Part shown: in pieces, positions 17,730 to 28,083 of the stretch
How the letters are laid out: the number at the start of each line of letters is the position of its first letter
Numbering within the stretch: position 1 is the stretch's first letter
Source of the DNA: Fibrobacter succinogenes subsp. succinogenes S85
Lineage (GTDB): Bacteria; Fibrobacterota; Fibrobacteria; Fibrobacterales; Fibrobacteraceae
DNA: 32,000 bases
NCBI RefSeq assembly: GCF_000146505.1
Contig: NC_017448.1
Coordinates: 3,540,001 to 3,572,000, forward strand
Reading direction: 5' to 3'
Program-made: the position numbers and the translations under genes
The notes under the pieces: generated by a model
Databases searched by the model: none
The model's input: the letters and a program-made list of their open reading frames with translations, nothing else
What the model was told of the DNA's origin: nothing

Positions 17730-17758
17730 TTGACAAAAACCGTAATTTTTACTATATT
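17730..17758 (+). promoter_or_regulatory. Sigma-70-like promoter candidate for the 17909 operon
   Basis: TTGACA 17730-17735, exactly 17 nt of spacer, TATATT 17753-17758, inside a 253-nt AT-rich divergent intergenic region. Promoter consensus for this lineage is not known to me. Confidence 0.4.
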
Positions 17759-17908
17759 AGCCCGGCTTTTATGAGTTTGGTTTTATAATTGTTTAATGAA
17801 AATATTGTTTAGGGTTTAAGGAAAATTAATTGTTTTTCCTGTTTCCCTCTGTCGTTTTTCCTTGACATTGTTGTTTGACTTTTAATCCATTAATTAAAGA
17901 GGTAAGTT

Positions 17909-18799
17909 ATGGATATGTCTTGTGCTGTACAGACAAATGACTCTCCACGCTTTAAGCTGGAGGAGAATGAAAAAATCTACGCATTGTTTGATGCGTTCAT
18001 CAAAAAAACTCTTGTTGAAGACCGCGCCATCGATTTTTCGGCACCCGCAATACTCAATGAAGATGGCACCATAGAATTTTACGAAAGCGACTATCGATTC
18101 TCCGACTTAATCCGGGGTGTCGGCCACAATAATACAAAGGCTTGCTTTGAACAACTAATCGCTAAGCGGGTCACGAAAGAATACAAGCTTTTGGCGACAT
18201 CCGAACCGTTCGTGGAAAAATTACTACTGCTGTCCGCTCATTTCTACTGGTTGTGGAGCTTGGGTATTTCTTTTTGCGAAACTTCTTGCGGTGAATATGG
18301 CAAGGCACTTTCTATCAATGAAGGTTGGGCTGATTACATTGATGATTACTATGTAGGACAAGGTCTCTGGAGTACATCGACAACTCGACCCGCTCGCAAA
18401 AAAGAACTGATGTTGATCTATTCTATCTTTGAACAGTTCATCACATGGCCGAAAAAGCCAACGTTTAAAAATTTGTTTGAACTGAAACAGGCTCTGGTCC
18501 ATTTCGTCTTCAAGACCAAGCTTGATTCAAACGCTCCAATCCGCAACGGTCTACTCCACTTCTGCAATCCCGACCGTTACATTGACTTCTACCGTTACGA
18601 ATCAAAAGTTCAGTACGTTGAAAATAATTCCAATCTGCTGCGAGATTACAAGGTATCGGACTACGCTCAAATGCTCACTCAGGATGGTCTCTATTTTTCC
18701 ACCAGAATTGGCAAGGTTGAAGACCACTTGGTCTACAAGGCAAACCGAACTGAAGAAAAAATTTGCTACATCTATGACAAGCTTACTCAAGTAGGTTAG
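17909..18799 (+). CDS. Hypothetical protein (296 aa), first gene of the LRR-A operon
   Basis: RBS aaagagg upstream. No signal peptide or TM segment. Stop TAG 18797-18799 abuts the RBS of the next gene. No confident motif. Confidence 0.6.
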
Positions 18800-18813
18800 A
18801 AAGAGGATTTATT

Positions 18814-21218
18814 ATGATCGCCAAAAATAAAGAACAACTTATTGAACTAATCCATAAAGCCATTGAAGAAAAGGGTTATGAATGCGACCTGAATTTTATT
18901 GACGTGTCGCAAGTGTATGATATGAGCGAATTGTTTAGCCATTCCCCGTTTAACGGCGACATTATAAATGGGATGTGTCGAATGTGTGGAGTATGAGAGA
19001 AATGTTTGCTTTCTCTCGGTTTAATGGCGATATTAGTGGGTGGAACGTATCAAACGTGACGGATATGGGAAGCATGTTTTGGAGGTCTAAATTCAATGGC
19101 GATATCAGTCATTGGGATGTGTCTAATGTGACGTACATGGCGTGTATGTTTAGCTGTTCTAAGTTCAATGGTGATATCAGCCGTTGGAATGTGTCTCGTG
19201 TGACAGATATGAGAGGCATGTTTGTTCATTCTCCATTCAATGGCGATGTCAGTCATTGGAATGTATCGAATGTGAAAGATTTTGGCTGTATGTTTGACGA
19301 ATCTGCTACGGAATGGGCGATGTGTTATCCGTCCTGGTATAAGGGTAAGCGAGTAAATGGGATTGTTGCCGAGAACCGCGAAAATCTTATTGAAATTATT
19401 AAAGCCGTAATTAAAAGAAATGGCTCAGAGTGTGATTTGAATTATATTGACGTGTCGCAAGTGACGAATATGAGATATCTGTTTGTTCATTCACAATTCA
19501 ATGGCGATATTAGTGGGTGGGATGTGTCGAATGTGACAGATATGAGGGGAATGTTTAGAGATTCTCTGTTTGAAGGTGATATCAGTCAGTGGAATGTCTC
19601 GAAAGAAACGGTTAAGGATAGTATGTTTTTCAACTCTGGTATTGAAAAAAACAATCGCTATCCATCTTGGTATGGAAAAGATGAACAGGTCCATAAGGTT
19701 GTTGCTCGGGATCGTGATCATCTTATCGAGCTTATTGATGCGGCAATTGAAAGAAATGGTCTTGAATGTGACTTGAATTTTATTGATGTGTCGCAGGTGA
19801 CGGATATGAGTTGGCTGTTTGGTTTTTATTCGCTTGATGATGAAACGGATGAAGAAATTCCCGAAGAAGAAATGGATGATTCGCAAAGAAAAGCTTTAAA
19901 AAGAAGTCAATTTGATGGCGATATCAGTCAATGGGATGTGTCGCATGTGACAAACATGAAAGCGATGTTTTTTTCCTCTTCTTTTAATGGAGATATCGGT
20001 CAGTGGGACGTGTCATGCGCGAAAGACATGAAAGGGGTGTTTTTCAATTCACAATTCAATGGTGATATTAGCGGGTGGAATGTATCGAATGTGACTGATA
20101 TGACGGGGATGTTTTGGTACTCTAAATTCAACAGAGACATTAGTAAATGGAATGTGTCAAATGAGACGGTTAAGGATAATATGTTTCTAGAGTCTGCTAC
20201 GGAATGGGCGAATTGCTATCCGTCCTGGTATGGGATAGATGAACGGAACCAAAAAGTTGTTGCTACTGACTGTTATAATCTTATGGAGATTATTGATGCG
20301 GCGATTGAAAGAAAGGGCTTGCAATGTGACCTGAATTATATTGACGTGTCGCAAGTGACGGATATGCGCAAGTTGTTTGGGTTTACGCGGATTTTTAATG
20401 ATTACGGTGAAGAAATTCCCGATGAGGAGTATGCTGAATGGAATAGAAAAACACTATTGAGAAACAAATTTAATGGCGATATCAGTGGGTGGGATGTGTC
20501 GAACGTGACGGATATGACGGATATGTTTCGCGGTTCTGATTTCAATGGTGACATCAGTCAATGGGATGTGTCAAATGTAACGAACATGGAAGGGCTTTTT
20601 GTCAGCTCAAAATTTAACGGCGATATCAGTCGATGGAATGTATCGAACGTGACGGATATGAACAATATGTTTGGCAACACTGAATTCAATGGCGATATCA
20701 GCGGGTGGGATGTATCAAACGTGACTAATATGATGGGAATGTTTTGGTGTTCTAAATTCAACGGCGATATTAGTCAATGGGATGTGTCAAATGTGACAGA
20801 TATGTATGGCATGTTTGAATGTTCTAAGTTCAATGGCGATATTAGCCATTGGGATGTATCTCATGTGACGAATATGAAAAACATGTTTTATAGTTCCGAA
20901 TTCAATGGCGATATCAGTCAATGGAATGTCTCAAATGTGACGGAAATGAGCAGCATGTTTCAATGTTCTAAGTTCAATGGCGACATCTGCCATTGGAATG
21001 TATCCCATGTGACGAATATGAAAGACTTGTTTCATGGTTCCGAATTTAATGGTGATATCAGTCAATGGAATGTCTCAAATGTGACGGAAATGAGCGGCAT
21101 GTTTCAATATTCAAAATTCAAAGGCGACATCAGTCAGTGGGATATGTCAAATGTTACAGATAAAGAGTATATGTTTGATGACGATGATGATGAAATGTTT
21201 GACGAAAATGATGAGTAG
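18814..21218 (+). pseudogene. DUF285 / BspA-type LRR protein (LRR-A), four capped modules, interrupted by a 1-nt frameshift at about 18961-18966 (or a sequencing error)
   Basis: ORF 18814..18996 encodes the canonical family N-terminus ([34 protein letters not shown]...FNGDI). It then leaves the repeat frame, which continues in the frame opening at 18954 (...[14 protein letters not shown]...). The text gac att at aaa tgg gat gtg looks like GDIS-KWDV with one base missing from the Ser codon. Confidence 0.65.
18889..21176 (+). repeat. Coding 72-nt (24-aa) DUF285 LRR repeat array, about 21 units
   Basis: My count from the translation: units of the form FNGDISxWDVSNVTxMxxMFxxSx. The array is broken by three cap/header junctions near 19362, 19698 and 20255. 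Confidence 0.8.
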
Positions 21219-21246
21219 AGAGGCGGGGTAGAGTCATTTTACATTT

Positions 21247-21283
21247 CCCACCCATTTAACGATAATATATGGGTGGGTTTATT
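21247..21283 (+). terminator. Hairpin terminator candidate after LRR-A
   Basis: cccaccca (21247-21254), 15-nt loop, tgggtggg (21270-21277), then tttatt. ATG 21269 of the ORF track lies inside this hairpin. Confidence 0.5.
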
Positions 21284-21313
21284 GTATCAATTTCTTTTTT
21301 ACAAGGAATTATT

Positions 21314-22051
21314 ATGATCAAAAAATATTTGGAAAATGAATACAAAGAAGACATCAAGAATGTCTTTAACACAGAACCAAGATGCGATAGTTGGTTCTGT
21401 ATAGACTACAATAGAGATCAATGGGCTGAAATCCAAGCTAAGAACTTGGCTTTGTCCAAGGAAAATCCGGATCGTCATTTTGTTCTATCTAGTGTATTTC
21501 TATTCCATTTTATAGTTACCATAGCCATGTGGGATGAATGTTCTTATAACCAAACGTTCAATTATGATGGATTTAAGGAGTTCTATGAAGGATTGACAGG
21601 ATGGCCGCAAATGCATCTGACGTACTGGAAGGAATTTTCACGAAAATACTCCGATGAAGAATTCCTGCTGGTAGATGTCAAAAAAATTCTAGACCGTTTC
21701 TCTCTGATGCGTAACGGCATTCAAAATCGAACAAGTGAATTTATGTTGTCGTGTATTTTTGCTGCTATGCAGGGACAATTGAATGATGCATTGATTAAAT
21801 GGAATGTTTCGAAAAAGTCTAAGGTCGCGGTTTCATCTAAAGTCCAGTACCTTCTGGACAGAATCAGGAATATTTTGAAGACTGGTTATATGCCGGACGA
21901 ACCGGAACAGAAAAAATCAAATCCAGAACCAAAACAGATTGAAGATAAACCGCAAATTGAATCAAAAAGTTCTGTTGGAAAAGATTCGGATACGGAGTTA
22001 ACTGATGATGAAATCGGTTTTAATGTGTACGAAGAACCCTTAATTTTATAG
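21314..22051 (+). CDS. Hypothetical protein (245 aa) with a low-complexity acidic/Lys-Pro-rich C-terminal third
   Basis: ATG 21314 is preceded by aaggaa and shares the start context ttattATGATC with the LRR genes. No signal peptide and no recognisable domain. C-terminus ...DSDTELTDDEIGFNVYEEPLIL. Confidence 0.55.
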   Translation: MIKKYLENEYKEDIKNVFNTEPRCDSWFCIDYNRDQWAEIQAKNLALSKENPDRHFVLSSVFLFHFIVTIAMWDECSYNQTFNYDGFKEFYEGLTGWPQMHLTYWKEFSRKYSDEEFLLVDVKKILDRFSLMRNGIQNRTSEFMLSCIFAAMQGQLNDALIKWNVSKKSKVAVSSKVQYLLDRIRNILKTGYMPDEPEQKKSNPEPKQIEDKPQIESKSSVGKDSDTELTDDEIGFNVYEEPLIL

Positions 22052-22191
22052 TAATATAGAGAATAAATCTCAAAGCTCCTCTGACTTCTAGGTTGGTGGG
22101 GCTTTTTCTTTAAACAGGATTTAATTAGGTTTTGAGCTTATAATCCTATTTTATATTGTATATTTCTAAAAAATATCAAAGAGGATTTATT

Positions 22192-24681
22192 ATGATCGCC
22201 CAGAACAGAGAACATCTCATTGAACTTATTGATAAAGCTATTGAAGAAAACGGTCTTGAATGCGATTTGAATTTTATCGATGTGTCGCAAGTGACTGATA
22301 TGCATGAGTTGTTCGGATTCGTTCCGATTGATGATGATATTCCTGAAGAAGAATTTGATGAAGAGCTTCGAAAAGCAAAAAAAAGAAGTTCGTTTAATGG
22401 AAATATCAGCCATTGGGACGTATCCAATGTGACAAGTATGAGCGATATGTTTAGACAATCGCAATTTAATGGTGATATTAGTAATTGGGATGTCTCTAGT
22501 GTGACTGATATGTGGGGTATGTTTAAGAAATCTCAATTTAAAGGAAATATTAGCAGATGGAACGTATCCAATGTAAAGAGTATGGGGTATATGTTCAGTG
22601 AATCTCAATTCAATGGAAACCTAAGTTGTTGGAATGTCTCAAATGTAACGGATATGAGTTATATGTTTGATGAATCCCAATTCAATGGTGATATTAGTAG
22701 TTGGAATGTATCCAATGTGACGAATATGAGTCTTATGTTTGAACACTCCCCATTCAATGGAAACATTAGTCAATGGAATGTGTATCGTGTTAAAAATTTT
22801 AGTTATATGTTTGCTGGTTCTCGGTTTAATAAGAATATTGACCGATGGTTTTTATCGCATGCTGCAAATGTGGAGGGAATGTTTGATGAATCTGTTACGG
22901 AATGGGCGAATTGCTATCCGTCCTGGTATAGAAATGAAGGACGGATAAATAGAGTTGTGGCTAGTGACCTTGAAAATCTTATTGAAATTGTTGATGCTGC
23001 TATTGAGAGAAAAGGTTTAGAATGTGACTTGAATTATATAGATGTGTCGCATGTGACTGATATGAGAAGTTTGTTTGGATTTGAAGGAGCTTATGATCCT
23101 GAACGAGATGCGGATGTCATTGCGGAATTTAATGATTTGGATCGAAAAGCATTTAAAAGAAGCAAGTTTAATGGGAATATCTGCCAATGGAATGTATCCA
23201 ATGTGACGAATATGAACGGAATGTTTGAAAATTCTCAATTTAAAGGAAACATTGGTCAATGGAATGTATTGAAAGTGACTGATATGGGGGATATGTTTGC
23301 TGGGGCGATGTTCAATGGCGATATTAGTCAGTGGGATGTATCTAACGTAAAATGTATGGCTCATTTGTTTTATGCATCTCAATTTGATGGTGATATCAGT
23401 CGGTGGGATGTATTTGGTGTGACTGATATGCATGCCATGTTTGAAGATTCCCAATACAATGGTGATCTTAGTCGGTGGGACGTATCAAATGTGACTGATA
23501 TGCATGCTATGTTTAAAGATTCCCAATTTAATGGTGATATTAGTTGGTGGAACGTGTCAAATGTGAAAAACATGCATGCTATGTTTGAAGGATCTCAGTT
23601 TAATGGTGATATTAGTCGGTGGAATGTGTCAAATGTAACGGATATGGGAAGCATGTTTGCTAATTCTCAATTTGACGGTGATATTAGTCAATGGGATGTG
23701 TCGAGTGTGACGGACATGAGTAAGATGTTTGCGTGCGATTCTGTTGTGTATGGAGAGTTCAATCCATTCTGTGGCGACATTAGCCTATGGAACGTGTCAA
23801 AAGTGAAGAATATGAGCGGGATGTTTCGGGGATCTGAATTCAATGACGATATCAGCCTTTGGAATGTGTCAGGTGTGACTAATATGAGTGTTATGTTTTC
23901 ATATTCACAATTTAACGGTGATATCAGCCAGTGGGATGTGTCAAGAGTTACTAATATGAGCTCTATGTTTGCGCATTCCCGATTTAACAAAGATATCAGT
24001 CAATGGAATGTGTCTATTGATGCCACATTGGGTAATATGTTTAATGACTCAGCCATTGAATGGGCTAACGATTATCCTTCTTGGTATAGAATTGCTAGAC
24101 CAACGAATAGGATTGTCGCTAGAGACAAAGATCATCTTGATAAAATTGTACGTGCTGTAATAGGAAGAAAAGGACCTAAATGTGATTTGAACTATATTGA
24201 TGTTTCAAATGTGACGGATATGAGCGGTTTGTTTGTTGATTCCAATTTTAATGGTGACATTAGTCAATGGAATGTCTCGAATGTGACGGATATGAGTGGT
24301 ATGTTCTTGGGTTCCAATTTCAATGGTAACATTAGTCAGTGGGATGTTTCTAAAGTCACAAATATGACTGGAATGTTTGAAGAATCCGAATTCAATGGCG
24401 ATATCAGTTCGTGGAATGTTTCTAAAGTCACGAATATGACTGAAATGTTCAAGAAATCCCAATTCAATTGTGATATTAGCGGATGGGACGTGTCTAGCGT
24501 TGTTGAGGCTAAGTCTATGTTTGAAAACTCTCAATTTAAGCGTAATATTCGCTCATGGAAATTGAAAATGCGAAATTACAGGGGCTCGATATTAGACGAT
24601 GTGTTCAATGGAACACCAAATTATAGTGCTCTTGAAAAGGCTGCAGAATTATTAGATGACGACTTTTTTTATGAAATTTAG
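22192..24681 (+). CDS. DUF285 / BspA-type LRR protein (LRR-B), three capped modules, 829 aa
   Basis: ATG 22192 with RBS aaagagg. N-terminus [37 protein letters not shown]. About 24 FNG(D/N)ISxW(D/N)VSxVTxM repeats. Internal cap/header junctions lie near 22954 and 24112. No signal peptide. Confidence 0.85.
22267..24560 (+). repeat. Coding 72-nt DUF285 LRR repeat array, about 24 units
   Basis: Counted from the translation. Same 24-aa unit as in LRR-A. Confidence 0.8.
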
Positions 24682-24700
24682 TGCCTAACTAAAAATCAAG

Positions 24701-24741
24701 TATAAAACCCGTCGGCGTTCATGCCGGCGGGCTTTCTCGTT
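24701..24741. terminator. Bidirectional terminator between convergent LRR-B and the AAA+ gene
   Basis: cccgtcggc (24708-24716), loop gttcat, gccggcggg (24723-24731), with one G-U pair. Flanked by tataaaa on the left and ctttctcgtttt on the right, giving a U-run for either transcript. Confidence 0.75.
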
Positions 24742-27027
24742 TTAGAACCCCATCTTTCTCTTGTTATCGCTGCCTTCCTTCGCTTCAACTTCTTTTTCAA
24801 GAGCGTCAGCAATGCAGTCGGTGGTGAGCTTATGTGCGGGCAAGTAACGCAACTGGTTGTAGACGGCACTGAAATCGCCCGGGGCGAGAGTCGTCATGTG
24901 CTTGACCTGTGCGGGGCATTCGAGCTTGGGGAAGAACGAGTGCCATACTGTTTCAATCCCTTCGCGGGTGAGGTAGTCAAATTTGACCTTGAGCGCAAAG
25001 CGGCGGCGGGAGGCGTTGTCAAGTCTTGCGTTGAAATTTGTGGCGGCGATGAAAATCCCGTTGAAGTTTTCCATCTGCGTCAAGAGTTCGTTGACCTGCG
25101 TTACTTCGAAATTGCGGACGGCTCCGTTGCGGTCGTTTAAGAAGCTATCGGCTTCATCGAAGAAGAGAATGGCTTTGCGTTCTTCGGCTTCTTCGAAAGC
25201 GGCCTTGATTTTGGCTTCGGTTTCGCCGACGTACATCCCGAGCAAGTCGCTAGCGCGCTTGACGACGAGATTTCTGTTCAGTTTGCGGGCAAGGAATCGC
25301 ACGAATTCAGTTTTGCCTGTTCCCGGTGCGCCGTAGAGCAGAATGTTCAGTGACTGCGCAGCGTCTTTGCCGTTTAACTTGTCCCAAATACCGTTGAAGT
25401 TCTCGGCGATTTCAACAATGTCGTCAATGTTCTGGTCTATGTTGAGCCCGGTCAGCGTGTAAGCGGGAGCGTGCGTCGTCTTTTCGCGGGTGTTGTCGCG
25501 GGCGATGTTGAGCAAGTTCGCATGTGCATCGAGCATTTTGCGGATGACGGTGACCGCGATTCCTTTGTCCTGCTTGGCGGCGGGGATGGCGTTTTGGACC
25601 GCCTTGGTGTAGCCGCCGACTGTGACGGGGTATTCCGCGGCGATGTTCTGGATTTCTTCTTCGCTGATCATGTCGGGAACGTGGAGCACGTTCAATACGG
25701 AGTGCAACTGCAAAGCGCGTTTTTCCGCCGTAAAGTTCTTGAATTCCATCGAAAAGTCAAAACGGCGGCGGGTGCTTTCTTCGACGAACGTCATGGAATT
25801 CGAAATCCAGATGATGGGCGTGTGGATGTCTTCCATGAGCATGTTGAGCATACCTTTTTCAAGCCAGTTGAGCATCTGGTCGGCTTCATCGACGAGAATA
25901 ATGGCGTTTGTGTTTTCGCATTGCCAGGCAGCGAGTCGGAGTGTGCGCACGCGGCGGCGGAGAATCGCATCGTACATGCCGCCTTCGCCACCGAATCGGT
26001 CTTGCTCCGCTGGCGCCTTGATGGTGTACATCTTGAGTCCGAGTTCATTGGCGAGTGCTTTTGAAAGCTCAGTCTTGCCGGTACCCGCGCGACCGTAGAA
26101 CAGAATGTTGAGCGGCTTCTTGTAATCGTGATTAGCGAGCAAGTACACGAGCGTATCAGCTTCCGGGCGGTCCTTGGCGAGTGTCTCGAACGGAATCTTG
26201 GAATCTTCGGCAATGCCGATATCGCCAACTTTAGTAATCTCGTTTTGACCGTTCAGGTGGCGGACAATGTCCCCGTCCAGATCCATATCGTTGTCAAGAA
26301 TGCCGAGCTTGGAAATGAGCGCATCGCTGTTGGTCAGTTCAGAAAGTCGCTGCTTGGAAAGTCCGGTGGCGATGGGAATGAGTTCCAAGTCTTTTTCCGT
26401 GAAACGGGTCCTCATCCCGCAAGTCAAGCGCTTCTTGATGCTTTTGACGTCCATTTCATCGTATTCCTGAATCCAGAGATAGAGAATGAGTTCAATTTCG
26501 TCGTCGTTCAGGTGGAACATTTCCTGGAGCTTTTCAACTCGCTGCATGGTGGAGTCGCTTTCGTCGGTGCCTTTGTTGAGTTCCTGCCAGGCGAATTTCA
26601 TGAACAGCGGAATGACAGTGTTGAGAAAACGCTTCCATTCATTATCGGTGAAAACGTCCTTGGAAAGGTGCTTGATATTTTCGATGCTGCGGGCGACCTC
26701 GACGTGGAAATCTTTGTGCGGGTATTTCTTGAGGAATATTGCTCCATGTGCGCCGCAGTAGTTGCCTCGTGCGACGGAGAGAGGTGCGGAACCGTCAAGT
26801 TTATTTTGTCTGTCAATTTGGGCGAGCGCGTTGACGAGTTCGGTTTGTGTTTCAAAATCCATGAGGCCGACGACTGCTTCGGGGTTGAGATAGTCGGGGT
26901 TTGCTTGCAAATAACGGACCCAGTATTCCAACACCTTCAAAAGCGTGAACTTGGAGCTTGTGCAGCCTTGCGGCGTGTTGCTCTGGAGCTTGTTGGCGAT
27001 GTTCTGGAAGTATTCTTTTTTATTCAT
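24742..27027 (-). CDS. Tandem AAA+ ATPase (two classic-clade AAA modules) with an unknown N-terminal domain of about 300 aa
   Basis: D1 has Walker A GRAGTGKT, Walker B ILVDEADQ and ...STRRRFDF. D2 has Walker A GAPGTGKT, Walker B ILFFDEADSF, ATNFNARLDNASRRRFALKVKF and the SpoVK/CbxX-like stretch GMYVGETEAKIK. Confidence 0.9.
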   Translation of the reverse strand: MNKKEYFQNIANKLQSNTPQGCTSSKFTLLKVLEYWVRYLQANPDYLNPEAVVGLMDFETQTELVNALAQIDRQNKLDGSAPLSVARGNYCGAHGAIFLKKYPHKDFHVEVARSIENIKHLSKDVFTDNEWKRFLNTVIPLFMKFAWQELNKGTDESDSTMQRVEKLQEMFHLNDDEIELILYLWIQEYDEMDVKSIKKRLTCGMRTRFTEKDLELIPIATGLSKQRLSELTNSDALISKLGILDNDMDLDGDIVRHLNGQNEITKVGDIGIAEDSKIPFETLAKDRPEADTLVYLLANHDYKKPLNILFYGRAGTGKTELSKALANELGLKMYTIKAPAEQDRFGGEGGMYDAILRRRVRTLRLAAWQCENTNAIILVDEADQMLNWLEKGMLNMLMEDIHTPIIWISNSMTFVEESTRRRFDFSMEFKNFTAEKRALQLHSVLNVLHVPDMISEEEIQNIAAEYPVTVGGYTKAVQNAIPAAKQDKGIAVTVIRKMLDAHANLLNIARDNTREKTTHAPAYTLTGLNIDQNIDDIVEIAENFNGIWDKLNGKDAAQSLNILLYGAPGTGKTEFVRFLARKLNRNLVVKRASDLLGMYVGETEAKIKAAFEEAEERKAILFFDEADSFLNDRNGAVRNFEVTQVNELLTQMENFNGIFIAATNFNARLDNASRRRFALKVKFDYLTREGIETVWHSFFPKLECPAQVKHMTTLAPGDFSAVYNQLRYLPAHKLTTDCIADALEKEVEAKEGSDNKRKMGF

Positions 27028-27300: not shown

Positions 27301-28083
27301 ATGTCGGATAAAGTTGTGGTGCGCGATCTTGAAGAACTGAGAAGATTGGTTTATGATACCATTCAACGCTTGGGACCGAATTGTGACTTGAACTTTATAG
27401 ATGTATCTCCAATGGTGGAAATGACGGGACTGTTTACTTGTCCGAACCATACGTTTAATGGGGATATAAGCCAGTGGGACGTGTCCAATGTGATCAATAT
27501 GGACGAAATGTTTTCGGGCTCCGATTTCAATGGCGACATTAGCCGTTGGGATGTGGCAAACGTTGATAGTATGTACGGAATGTTTAAATATTCCGCATTT
27601 AACGGAGATATATCGGAGTGGAATGTTTCAAATGTTCAATGCATGAGTAATATGTTTGAGGGGTCAGTTTTCAATGGAGACCTTTCTAAATGGGATGTGT
27701 CCCGAGTGAATCGCATGGATGACATGTTCCGTTATTCTAAGTTTAATGGGGATATCTCTAAATGGGATGTGTCGCACGTGACATCTATGGATGATATGTT
27801 TCATGGATCCGTGTTTAATGGAGATATCTCGAATTGGGATGTTGGAATGTGTAGAAGTTTTGGCGGTATGTTTTATCGTAGTGCCTTTTGTGGCGATTTG
27901 GAGCGTTGGAATCTTGTTAATCCGGAACTCATGACTTTTGATATGTTGGAATGCTCATTGTTGGATTGGAATAATTGTCTTCCGCAATGGTATAAGGTTA
28001 TTTATAGAAATCAGAATGTTGTTGAAGATTTTAATGAATTGGACTCCATTGACGATGACGAGGATAAAAACCTGCCTTTTTAG
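27301..28083 (+). CDS. DUF285 / BspA-type LRR protein (LRR-C), single capped module, 260 aa
   Basis: ATG 27301 with RBS aaagagg. Header [32 protein letters not shown], 7 repeats, closing cap LDWNNCLPQWY, acidic tail DSIDDDEDKNLPF. No signal peptide. Confidence 0.85.
   Translation: MSDKVVVRDLEELRRLVYDTIQRLGPNCDLNFIDVSPMVEMTGLFTCPNHTFNGDISQWDVSNVINMDEMFSGSDFNGDISRWDVANVDSMYGMFKYSAFNGDISEWNVSNVQCMSNMFEGSVFNGDLSKWDVSRVNRMDDMFRYSKFNGDISKWDVSHVTSMDDMFHGSVFNGDISNWDVGMCRSFGGMFYRSAFCGDLERWNLVNPELMTFDMLECSLLDWNNCLPQWYKVIYRNQNVVEDFNELDSIDDDEDKNLPF
27388..27914 (+). repeat. Coding 72-nt DUF285 LRR repeat array, 7 units
   Basis: Counted from the translation. Confidence 0.8.

Follow-up and report, generated by a model that had tools for sequence, protein, structure and literature searches.

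Strings of putatively capped repeat modules in DUF285 proteins of Fibrobacter succinogenes

The LRR-A, LRR-B and LRR-C genes and their surroundings

Three genes for DUF285 proteins, LRR-A, LRR-B and LRR-C, lie in the window, the whole 32,000-nucleotide stretch of the Fibrobacter succinogenes subsp. succinogenes S85 genome analysed here (Table 1). Their products score 515, 583 and 169 bits, respectively, against the DUF285 model (PF03382; gathering score 25), and they also belong to the PARCEL proteins as defined by TIGR02167, which asks for multiple matches above 30 bits to a 26-residue repeat model, with 243, 196 and 57 bits and 13, 10 and 2 matching stretches. The 'palindromic' coding of PARCEL genes is present as well, since inspection revealed antisense ORFs of 83–156 aa within LRR-A and LRR-B.

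Translation bore out the original prediction of eight modules in three genes, four in LRR-A, three in LRR-B and one in LRR-C, all eight of which open with a shared header of about 37 aa. Of the predicted module starts, that of A4 moves from 20255 to 20256. A closing motif, expected in most modules, is found in six (A1, A2, A3, B1, B2 and C) as the tail MF..S..E....P.WY, with MF..S........P.WY as the pattern used for coordinates; A4 lacks it and terminates in an acidic tract, and B3 has a variant ending. In LRR-C the tail is followed by a helix and then by an acidic tail ending in LPF. Consecutive modules are separated by linkers of 7–8 aa, and as the modules are only 37–61% identical to each other in protein and 63–83% in DNA, the arrays must be old.

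LRR-A had been taken as a single open frame, but in this genome it is broken by a one-base frameshift just past the first header. The frame from the ATG at 18814 terminates at 18994-18996, and the repeat resumes at about 18966 in a different frame. The independent Logan assembly SRR29904083 has a contig that codes for the identical 60 aa, and intact orthologues exist (P0108, P0247 and a 770-aa frame of the Fibrobacter genome G135).

LRR-A and LRR-B lie in a low-GC block that G135 also has but that is missing in G018, the closest of the relatives searched; neither direct repeats nor an integrase were found at its boundaries. A neighbouring 186-aa ORF is kept in G018, where the arrays are missing at this site. 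ORF260, between LRR-A and LRR-B, has no family match and is homologous to the domain that a paralogue at genome positions 2127387-2128646 carries C-terminally, in fusion with a DUF285 module (33% identity over 175 aa, E 2e-23). A tandem AAA+ ATPase gene, considered here as context only, separates LRR-B from LRR-C, and a second AAA+ paralogue (genome 1428764-1430641) likewise adjoins DUF285 genes. PADLOC and PHROGs returned no match for ORF296, ORF260 or ORF186; PADLOC gave none for LRR-B, and LRR-C matched only PHROGs families of unknown function.

Table 1. Positions, within the window, of the genes, modules and motifs discussed in the text
Feature	Position	Strand	Description
Low-GC 7-kb block	17751-24732		GC 0.34-0.42; ORF296, LRR-A, ORF260, LRR-B
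LRR-A 5' part	18814-18996	+	start codon, A1 header, first repeat, then out of frame; 60-aa product
LRR-A frameshift site	18960-18968	+	1 base missing relative to intact homologue L055 (..GAC ATT A-T AAA TGG..)
LRR-A main frame	18966-21218	+	rest of A1 (to 19361), A2, A3, A4; Pfam DUF285 E 2e-157
Header A1	18814-18924	+	from translation
Tail A1	19290-19340	+	from translation
A2 + A3 piece	19341-20255	+	two modules, modelled with AlphaFold2 for the junction
Module A2	19362-19697	+	112 aa, 2 repeat cores
Header A2	19362-19472	+	from translation
Tail A2	19623-19673	+	from translation
Module A3	19698-20255	+	186 aa, 4 cores
Header A3	19698-19808	+	from translation
Tail A3	20181-20231	+	from translation
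Module A4	20256-21218	+	320 aa, 10 cores, no tail, acidic C-terminus
Header A4	20256-20366	+	from translation
ORF260	21269-22051	+	between LRR-A and LRR-B
LRR-B	22192-24681	+	829 aa, 3 modules; Pfam DUF285 E 3e-178
Module B1	22192-22953	+	254 aa, 8 cores
Header B1	22192-22302	+	from translation
Tail B1	22879-22929	+	from translation
Module B2	22954-24111	+	386 aa, 12 cores
Header B2	22954-23064	+	from translation
Tail B2	24037-24087	+	from translation
Module B3	24112-24681	+	189 aa, 5 cores, variant ending
Header B3	24112-24222	+	from translation
Antisense ORFs (examples)	22138-22608, 23017-23454	-	open frames in LRR-B region
Tandem AAA+ ATPase	24742-27027	-	761 aa, IetA-like second AAA domain
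LRR-C	27301-28083	+	260 aa, one free-standing capped module
Header C	27313-27423	+	from translation
Tail C	27943-27993	+	from translation

Headers, tails and the predicted structure of a module

An HMM of the first 33 aa of the header, searched against all six-frame ORFs of the 3.84-Mb genome, gave 26 matches of 50–72 bits, every one of them inside a DUF285 frame, and the runner-up scored 13.7 bits (E 0.16); the header is far beyond chance and specific to DUF285 frames in this genome. The original prediction also gave each motif one invariant Cys. In the header this residue is present in all 26 genomic copies but substituted in many homologues (e.g., ADLNHIDVS and ANLNFIDTS), and in the tail it is not invariant even here, with Cys in four of six tails, R in A2 and D in B2. 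The disulphide Cys clusters that mark eukaryotic LRRNT and LRRCT caps are lacking, as are export signals, the header having one Cys and the tail none or one; with one Cys per cap, disulphide-type caps such as those of eukaryotic LRRs are impossible.

Structures were predicted with AlphaFold2 from shallow alignments (17–20 rows), and the independence of modules was judged from pTM, pLDDT and secondary structure. The single module of LRR-C gave a pLDDT of 90.7 and a pTM of 0.84, as compared with 90.0 and 0.66 for the two-module piece, so that pTM fell while mean pLDDT stayed at about 90. Residues 113-116 of the two-module model, in the linker GKDEQVHK (19674-19697), had pLDDT below 50, and this linker is predicted to be flexible. 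The modules opened alike at free and internal headers, with a short strand, a 15-residue helix and then the solenoid (strand and helix at residues 5-6 and 10-24 in LRR-C, 8-9 and 13-27 in A2, and 120-121 and 125-139 in A3), and the solenoid part of all three had one beta bridge every 24 aa. The fall of pTM at equal pLDDT, the low-confidence linker and the repeated header start support, as far as models and sequence can, the view that each protein is a series of independent capped solenoids and not one long solenoid. At eight residues the linker is short, and it could still hold the modules fixed relative to each other. Further supporting the proposed role of the two motifs as N- and C-terminal LRR caps, many one-module homologues begin directly with the header, and where they bear a tail, this lies close to the C-terminus and is followed by a short acidic extension.

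That the arrays instead form a single continuous solenoid, with the headers as helical insertions or bulges in one long superhelix, appears most unlikely to us. Linkers of only 7–8 aa make tight end-to-end stacking conceivable, but all junctions in the models have a 15-residue helix and strand pairing inside their own module, just as at the LRR-C N-terminus, and the low linker pLDDT, the two-module pTM and the terminal header and tail of many one-module proteins point the same way. We also give little credence to a polyprotein from which a protease would release single capped modules by cutting the linkers. A K or R precedes the VVA strand at four of the five junctions, and arrays and free-standing single modules do exist side by side; the K, however, is no cleavage mark because it belongs to the header and in some proteins comes right after the start codon, and no match to a protease family was found.

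Returning to separately capped solenoids, the N-cap would be composed of a short strand, (K)VVA, followed by an amphipathic helix of 15 residues (D..HL..LI..AI...G) and then by the first repeat in degenerate form. The core of 2–12 repeats of 24 residues (F.GDIS.WDVS.VT.M..MF..S) would fold as an LRR-like solenoid in which each turn contributes one strand. For the C-cap, the final MF..S would combine with a short helix and with P.WY as an aromatic plug. Such units would follow each other in frame in the long genes with 7–8 hydrophilic residues between them, giving a string of separately capped solenoids. Foldseek searches with the LRR-C model returned LRR proteins for all of the best 50 matches; LRR proteins of known structure for comparison are plant LRR receptor ectodomains, SDS22, the Nogo receptor, internalin A, a repebody and the BspA-like 4h09. 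The last of these ranked first with the two-module model, but no match was below E 0.79, and the LRR-C sequence matched none of the PDB chains.

Origin, variation and selection of the arrays

A survey of homologues found headers and tails in related proteins, with concatemers common and module number varying between species at the same locus. The header matches 1373 clusters (50% identity) at E<=0.001, and about 45 of the best 150 cluster representatives have 2–6 header stretches. Among the best 120 matches to LRR-B, 33 have 2 to 9 headers and 74 have none, and 22 multi-header frames occur in the genome-contig loci; a 1785-aa frame of G135 comprises ten capped modules. The LRR-B locus itself has three modules here, as compared with two in G135 and two in Fibrobacter sp. 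UWT2. The spread outside the Fibrobacteraceae is uncertain: at least one contig labelled 'Gastranaerophilales' (L006), on which the AAA gene occurs with 94% identity, is probably a mis-binned Fibrobacter contig.

The long genes had been proposed to be head-to-tail fusions of once-separate genes. Direct evidence for such a fusion comes from a paralogue, in which the start codon ATG and some 22 nt of 5'UTR are still in frame at the internal junction at genome position 1432473; for LRR-A and LRR-B themselves the evidence is suggestive. A search of the linkers of these two genes for relics of ribosome-binding sites gave a weak purine-rich similarity, which is not counted here as evidence. The arrays probably arose from tandem genes fused in frame, followed by the duplication or exchange of whole modules. 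A tree of the headers (44 columns), which was to separate duplication within genes from duplication between them, supports the groups A1-B1 and (A2,(A4,B2)) and is otherwise poorly resolved.

Comparison of LRR-A with its G135 orthologue, at 89.6% identity over 689 aa without gaps, gave a dN/dS of 0.27 (0.14–0.37 per module), consistent with arrays maintained by purifying selection. These values bear on the reading that the arrays are decaying, non-functional repeat DNA with frames that stay open merely because PARCEL repeats are stop-poor, in favour of which one could name the LRR-A frameshift, the open antisense frames and the accessory nature of the block. Against it are this dN/dS over four modules with no indels in 689 codons, the preservation of caps and repeat register at 37–61% inter-module identity, and the repeated occurrence of the identical architecture in many genomes, and we regard it as extremely improbable. 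In our judgement LRR-A, LRR-B and LRR-C are probably signal-less DUF285/PARCEL proteins built of autonomous capped units, strung in frame through gene fusion and kept under purifying selection.

Cellular location and relation to known proteins

Neither a signal peptide nor a lipobox or transmembrane segment was recognised by hydropathy in any of 16 paralogues (Kyte-Doolittle; top 15-residue mean of the first 60 residues <=0.99), and every 19-residue window of LRR-A, LRR-B and LRR-C is below 1.1. Pfam finds no sorting domain in the LRR proteins, which thus lack the export features implied by the name 'BspA family leucine-rich repeat surface protein' that homologues bear in databases. With 362, 360 and 136 bits, they also fall short of the 500-bit cut-off of the Mbov_0838 lipoprotein family (NF045896). 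Exported surface adhesins, reaching the surface by a non-classical route with the modules as multivalent adhesion units, are therefore an unlikely alternative, although the database name, the expressed surface lipoproteins among Mycoplasma PARCEL proteins (PMC2996958) and the conserved acidic C-terminal tails, which could act as some signal, speak for them. Besides the hydropathy and lipoprotein-model results, it weighs against export that proteins with PKD or T9SS sorting domains are among the LRR-B matches without a header, and that header-bearing modules sit behind cytoplasmic domains, a TIR domain (P0045) and an FtsK-type ATPase (P0122), in fusions.

For the signal-less capped arrays, we infer a function in multivalent intracellular binding or recognition, in which every module would present its own variable surface. 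A bolder version, to which we assign only a slim chance, would make the modules the recognition units of an undescribed accessory, possibly defence-type, system, in which the arrays sense or trap foreign proteins together with the IetA-like AAA+ ATPase, perhaps via the conserved acidic tails with their terminal aromatic residue. It derives from the TIR and FtsK-type ATPase fusions, the second AAA+ paralogue beside DUF285 genes and the strain-variable low-GC insertion.

Slit, a secreted eukaryotic protein, contains several LRR domains, each with Cys-rich, disulphide-bonded LRRNT and LRRCT caps. By analogy, the Fibrobacter proteins are predicted to resemble it in having several separately capped LRR solenoids with short linkers in one chain; they differ in that a helix and an aromatic plug, with no more than one Cys, would serve as their caps, and the sequences are unrelated.

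Closer relatives are the PARCEL proteins described by Roske et al. 2010, whose repeat tracts occur in lipoproteins and membrane proteins, with some ORFs lacking targeting signals (PMC2996958). The Fibrobacter proteins share with them the 24-25-aa repeat, strong HMM matches, open antisense frames and a patchy accessory distribution suggesting transfer, but have no export signal, and caps, module boundaries and concatemers of capped units are not mentioned in that paper. In Mycoplasma feriruminatoris, a conserved 16-residue motif found only in DUF285 proteins lies just before the first repeat (Microb Genom 2023, PMC10634449) and, compared by description, may plausibly correspond to the header. 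Unlike the header, it occurs once per protein, in lipoproteins, was not read as a cap and was not reported to recur internally. The claim that the architecture is undescribed thus holds for the concatemers of capped units, of which we found no description in the literature searched on DUF285 and on Fibrobacter BspA/leucine-rich repeat proteins, but an upstream motif as such had already been reported.

The module layout is genuine, is subject to selection and occurs commonly across the family; it is a matter of domain architecture. DUF285/PARCEL is a large family with no solved structure, generally annotated 'surface protein' wholesale, and a defined folding unit of N-cap, repeats and C-cap would give correct domain boundaries for constructs and family models. 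The capped unit sets a signal-less, modular and probably cytoplasmic class apart from the exported one, and whole-module gain and loss would explain the length variation of its members, with gene fusion documented in a paralogue by a preserved start codon and 5'UTR.

Modules with predicted caps in three DUF285 genes

Pfam DUF285 is matched by three plus-strand genes, LRR-A, LRR-B and LRR-C (515, 583 and 169 bits), in the single-contig, 3.84-Mb genome of F. succinogenes S85; all three also match the NCBIfam PARCEL repeat model. Translation confirmed the eight modules originally predicted from the sequence (A1–A4, B1–B3 and LRR-C) and their starts, except that A4 begins at 20256, not 20255. All modules open with a header, (K)VVA.D..L.E(I/L)(I/V)..AI.R.G..CDLN(Y/F)IDVS.VT.M, and they are 112–386 aa long with 2–12 repeat cores. 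A closing motif, MF..S........P.WY, terminates six; A4 lacks this tail and has an acidic tract at its end, and the ending of B3 differs from it. The idea that each motif has one invariant Cys held only in part, as the header Cys is kept in all 26 genomic copies but substituted in many homologues, and the tail Cys is present in four of six tails only.

A search of all six-frame ORFs of the genome with an HMM built on header residues 1–33 found these 26 copies at 50–72 bits, all within 16 DUF285 genes (16 first in their gene, 10 internal; one is the N-terminal fragment of LRR-A); the next best match scored 13.7 bits.

Coordinates of features in the window or, where marked, the genome
Feature	Position	Strand	Remark
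LRR-A module starts	18814, 19362, 19698, 20256	+	translation
LRR-B module starts	22192, 22954, 24112	+	translation
LRR-C	start 27301, header from 27313	+	translation
Acidic insertions in A3, A4, B1, B2	19801-19890, 20370-20460, 22300-22390, 23065-23160		
Tandem AAA+ ATPase, IetA-like second domain	24742-27027	-	between LRR-B and LRR-C
Further concatemer	genome 116622-117725		2 modules
Further concatemer	genome 2137285-2139384		3 modules
Further concatemer	genome 1431615-1434014		3 modules
Antisense open frames within LRR genes	22138-22608, 23017-23454, 24205-24534, 19491-19886	-	long
Acidic C-termini	28039-28083, 24640-24681, 21170-21218		aromatic or hydrophobic last residues

A shared acidic insertion of 20–35 aa (LFGF..DDE..EE..RKA.KRS.F) separates the header from the first full repeat in modules A3, A4, B1 and B2; part of it is predicted to form a helix (H180-189) in A3. 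Acidic C-termini also occur: LRR-C terminates ..DDDEDKNLPF, another C-terminus in the window reads ..DDDDDEMFDENDE, and homologues end ..DEAENLPF, ..DADLPF and ..GDDLPF. This LPF-type ending may resemble the SSB C-terminal tip. The long antisense open frames within the LRR genes correspond to the 'palindromic' property of PARCEL DNA (Roske et al. 2010, PMC2996958).

LRR-A is a split gene here. The frame of its ATG at 18814 hits a stop at 18994-18996 and the repeat resumes in a different frame from ~18966, the gene being one base short of intact homologues at 18960-18968. Intact versions are found in an ENA metagenome (L055/P0108, with one additional base at this site), in the Logan protein P0247 and in a 770-aa orthologous frame of the Fibrobacter genome G135. 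The frameshift is probably real in the lineage rather than an assembly slip, because the independent Logan assembly SRR29904083 has a contig that codes for the identical 60-aa truncated protein. Public assemblies contain both intact and truncated (60-aa) alleles.

Predicted structure of modules and junctions

A search of PDB chains gave no sequence match. AlphaFold2 models were made of A2+A3 (19341-20255, 20-row alignment; mean pLDDT 90.0, pTM 0.66) and of the free-standing LRR-C (17-row alignment; pLDDT 90.7, pTM 0.84). A2 and A3 both begin with a short VVA strand and a 15-residue helix (H13-27; H125-139), followed by a solenoid with one bridge per 24 residues and short helices at the end, and LRR-C likewise begins with a strand (E5-6) and a helix (H10-24); towards its end come two more helices, one belonging to the tail (H220-223) and one beyond it (H229-246), and the acidic terminus is disordered. 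Since the second half of the header is a degenerate first repeat (cf. GDIS.WDVS.VTDM..MF), the cap proper is the strand plus helix, ~24 aa. Linker residues 113-116 of the A2+A3 model have pLDDT <50. The same cap at terminal and internal headers, this low-confidence linker and the lower pTM at equal pLDDT fit modules that are separately capped solenoids. The core of the original interpretation, that header and tail are caps and each protein a string of independent solenoids, is supported by prediction (LRR-C versus A2+A3) and by sequence comparison. With Foldseek, all 50 best matches to the LRR-C model were LRR proteins, albeit weak (E>=0.055, TMq<=0.42), and the A2+A3 model gave no useful match. 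The nearest architectural analogue is presumably Slit, with several capped LRR domains per chain.

Distribution and evolution of the modules

Surveyed for header, tail and module-number variation, related genomes have both motifs, frequent concatemers and varying module numbers. The header stands at the N-terminus of many one-module homologues, and where these have a tail it lies close to the C-terminus, with a short acidic extension beyond it. Among the best 120 database matches to LRR-B, 33 have 2–9 headers and 74 have none, the latter including the PKD- or T9SS-sorting-domain proteins; multi-header frames number 22 among 49 genome-contig loci. The header profile matched 1373 clusters (50% identity) at E<=0.001, and ~45 of the best 150 have 2–6 header stretches. 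Named relatives are Fibrobacter (P0033 is from Fibrobacter sp. UWT2), and the majority of related loci come from Fibrobacter MAGs. Of 151 sampled genomes of the phylum, 26 have the header, all of them members of one family (12/34, 12/14 and 1/3 sampled genomes in three genera); it was not found in the 95 sampled genomes of the other families. Copies per genome range from 1 in the closest relative searched, G018, to 40 in G135, with 26 here. A 1785-aa open frame of G135 has 10 capped modules (L056 1313-6667 (-) = G135:C8), with two alternating C-cap types, ..SPLE..PPEWY and a longer helical ..NQPKDNLDAIQNLYQK.LDS.. A 4.4-kb contig of a 'Gastranaerophilales' MAG (L006, JAEEHV010000075) carries a two-module DUF285 gene, a homologue of ORF260 and the AAA gene (94% aa identity); mis-binning of a Fibrobacter contig is the probable explanation, so apparent spread outside Fibrobacteraceae needs care.

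ORF296, LRR-A, ORF260 and LRR-B form a low-GC block (~17751-24732; 7 kb, GC 0.34-0.42), which is absent from G018, where the flanks are joined precisely, and present in G135 at ~90% identity; other Fibrobacter genomes have different DUF285 cassettes at this site, between a 186-aa ORF and the AAA gene. The G135 orthologue of LRR-A is intact, with the same four modules (89.6% identity over 689 aa, gap-free; Nei-Gojobori dN/dS 0.27 overall, 0.14-0.37 per module), and LRR-B has three modules here versus two in G135 (622-aa frame) and in UWT2. The arrays are old: the window modules share only 37-61% protein and 63-83% DNA identity. A weak header tree (44 columns) paired A1 with B1 (97/89), grouped (A2,(A4,B2)) (96/90) and united LRR-C with two further paralogues that have a single module (92/93).

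For the proposed fusion of once-separate genes, direct evidence comes from the paralogue at genome 1431615-1434014. Its internal junction (1432450-1432475) preserves the ATG and ~22-nt 5'UTR pattern found at the starts of two neighbouring genes; the Shine-Dalgarno has decayed, and loss of a single base puts the junction in frame. It is a direct footprint of head-to-tail tandem-gene fusion. In LRR-A and LRR-B themselves, the similarity of linkers to their own 5'UTRs is too weak to count as a fusion trace.

Neighbouring genes and putative function

The AAA+ ATPase has three paralogues in the genome, one (1428764-1430641) directly upstream of DUF285 genes; in G003 and G012, whose ATPases are 58% identical, no DUF285 gene lies in ~20 kb around the ATPase gene. 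ORF260 (21269-22051) has a homologue, 33% identical over 175 aa, in the paralogue at genome 2127387-2128646 (-), where it is a domain fused to the C-terminal side of a capped DUF285 module; this domain contains a strongly hydrophobic stretch (KD19 1.98) with a counterpart in ORF260. DarT-DUF285 fusions (P0164, P0231) have no recognisable header.

The PARCEL paper (Roske et al. 2010, PMC2996958) does not mention caps or concatemers. A 2023 Mycoplasma study (PMC10634449) describes a motif that is specific to DUF285 proteins and precedes the first repeat; this motif may be the same element as the header. The capped-module concatemers are an architectural variant within the known DUF285 family. 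As the 16 paralogues have no hydrophobic N-terminus or TM segment within the repeat part, the lipoprotein family model scored under its cut-off, and header-bearing modules stand behind a TIR domain (P0045) and, five of them, behind an FtsK/HerA-type ATPase (P0122) in other genomes, we infer that the capped DUF285 proteins would be cytoplasmic binding arrays.
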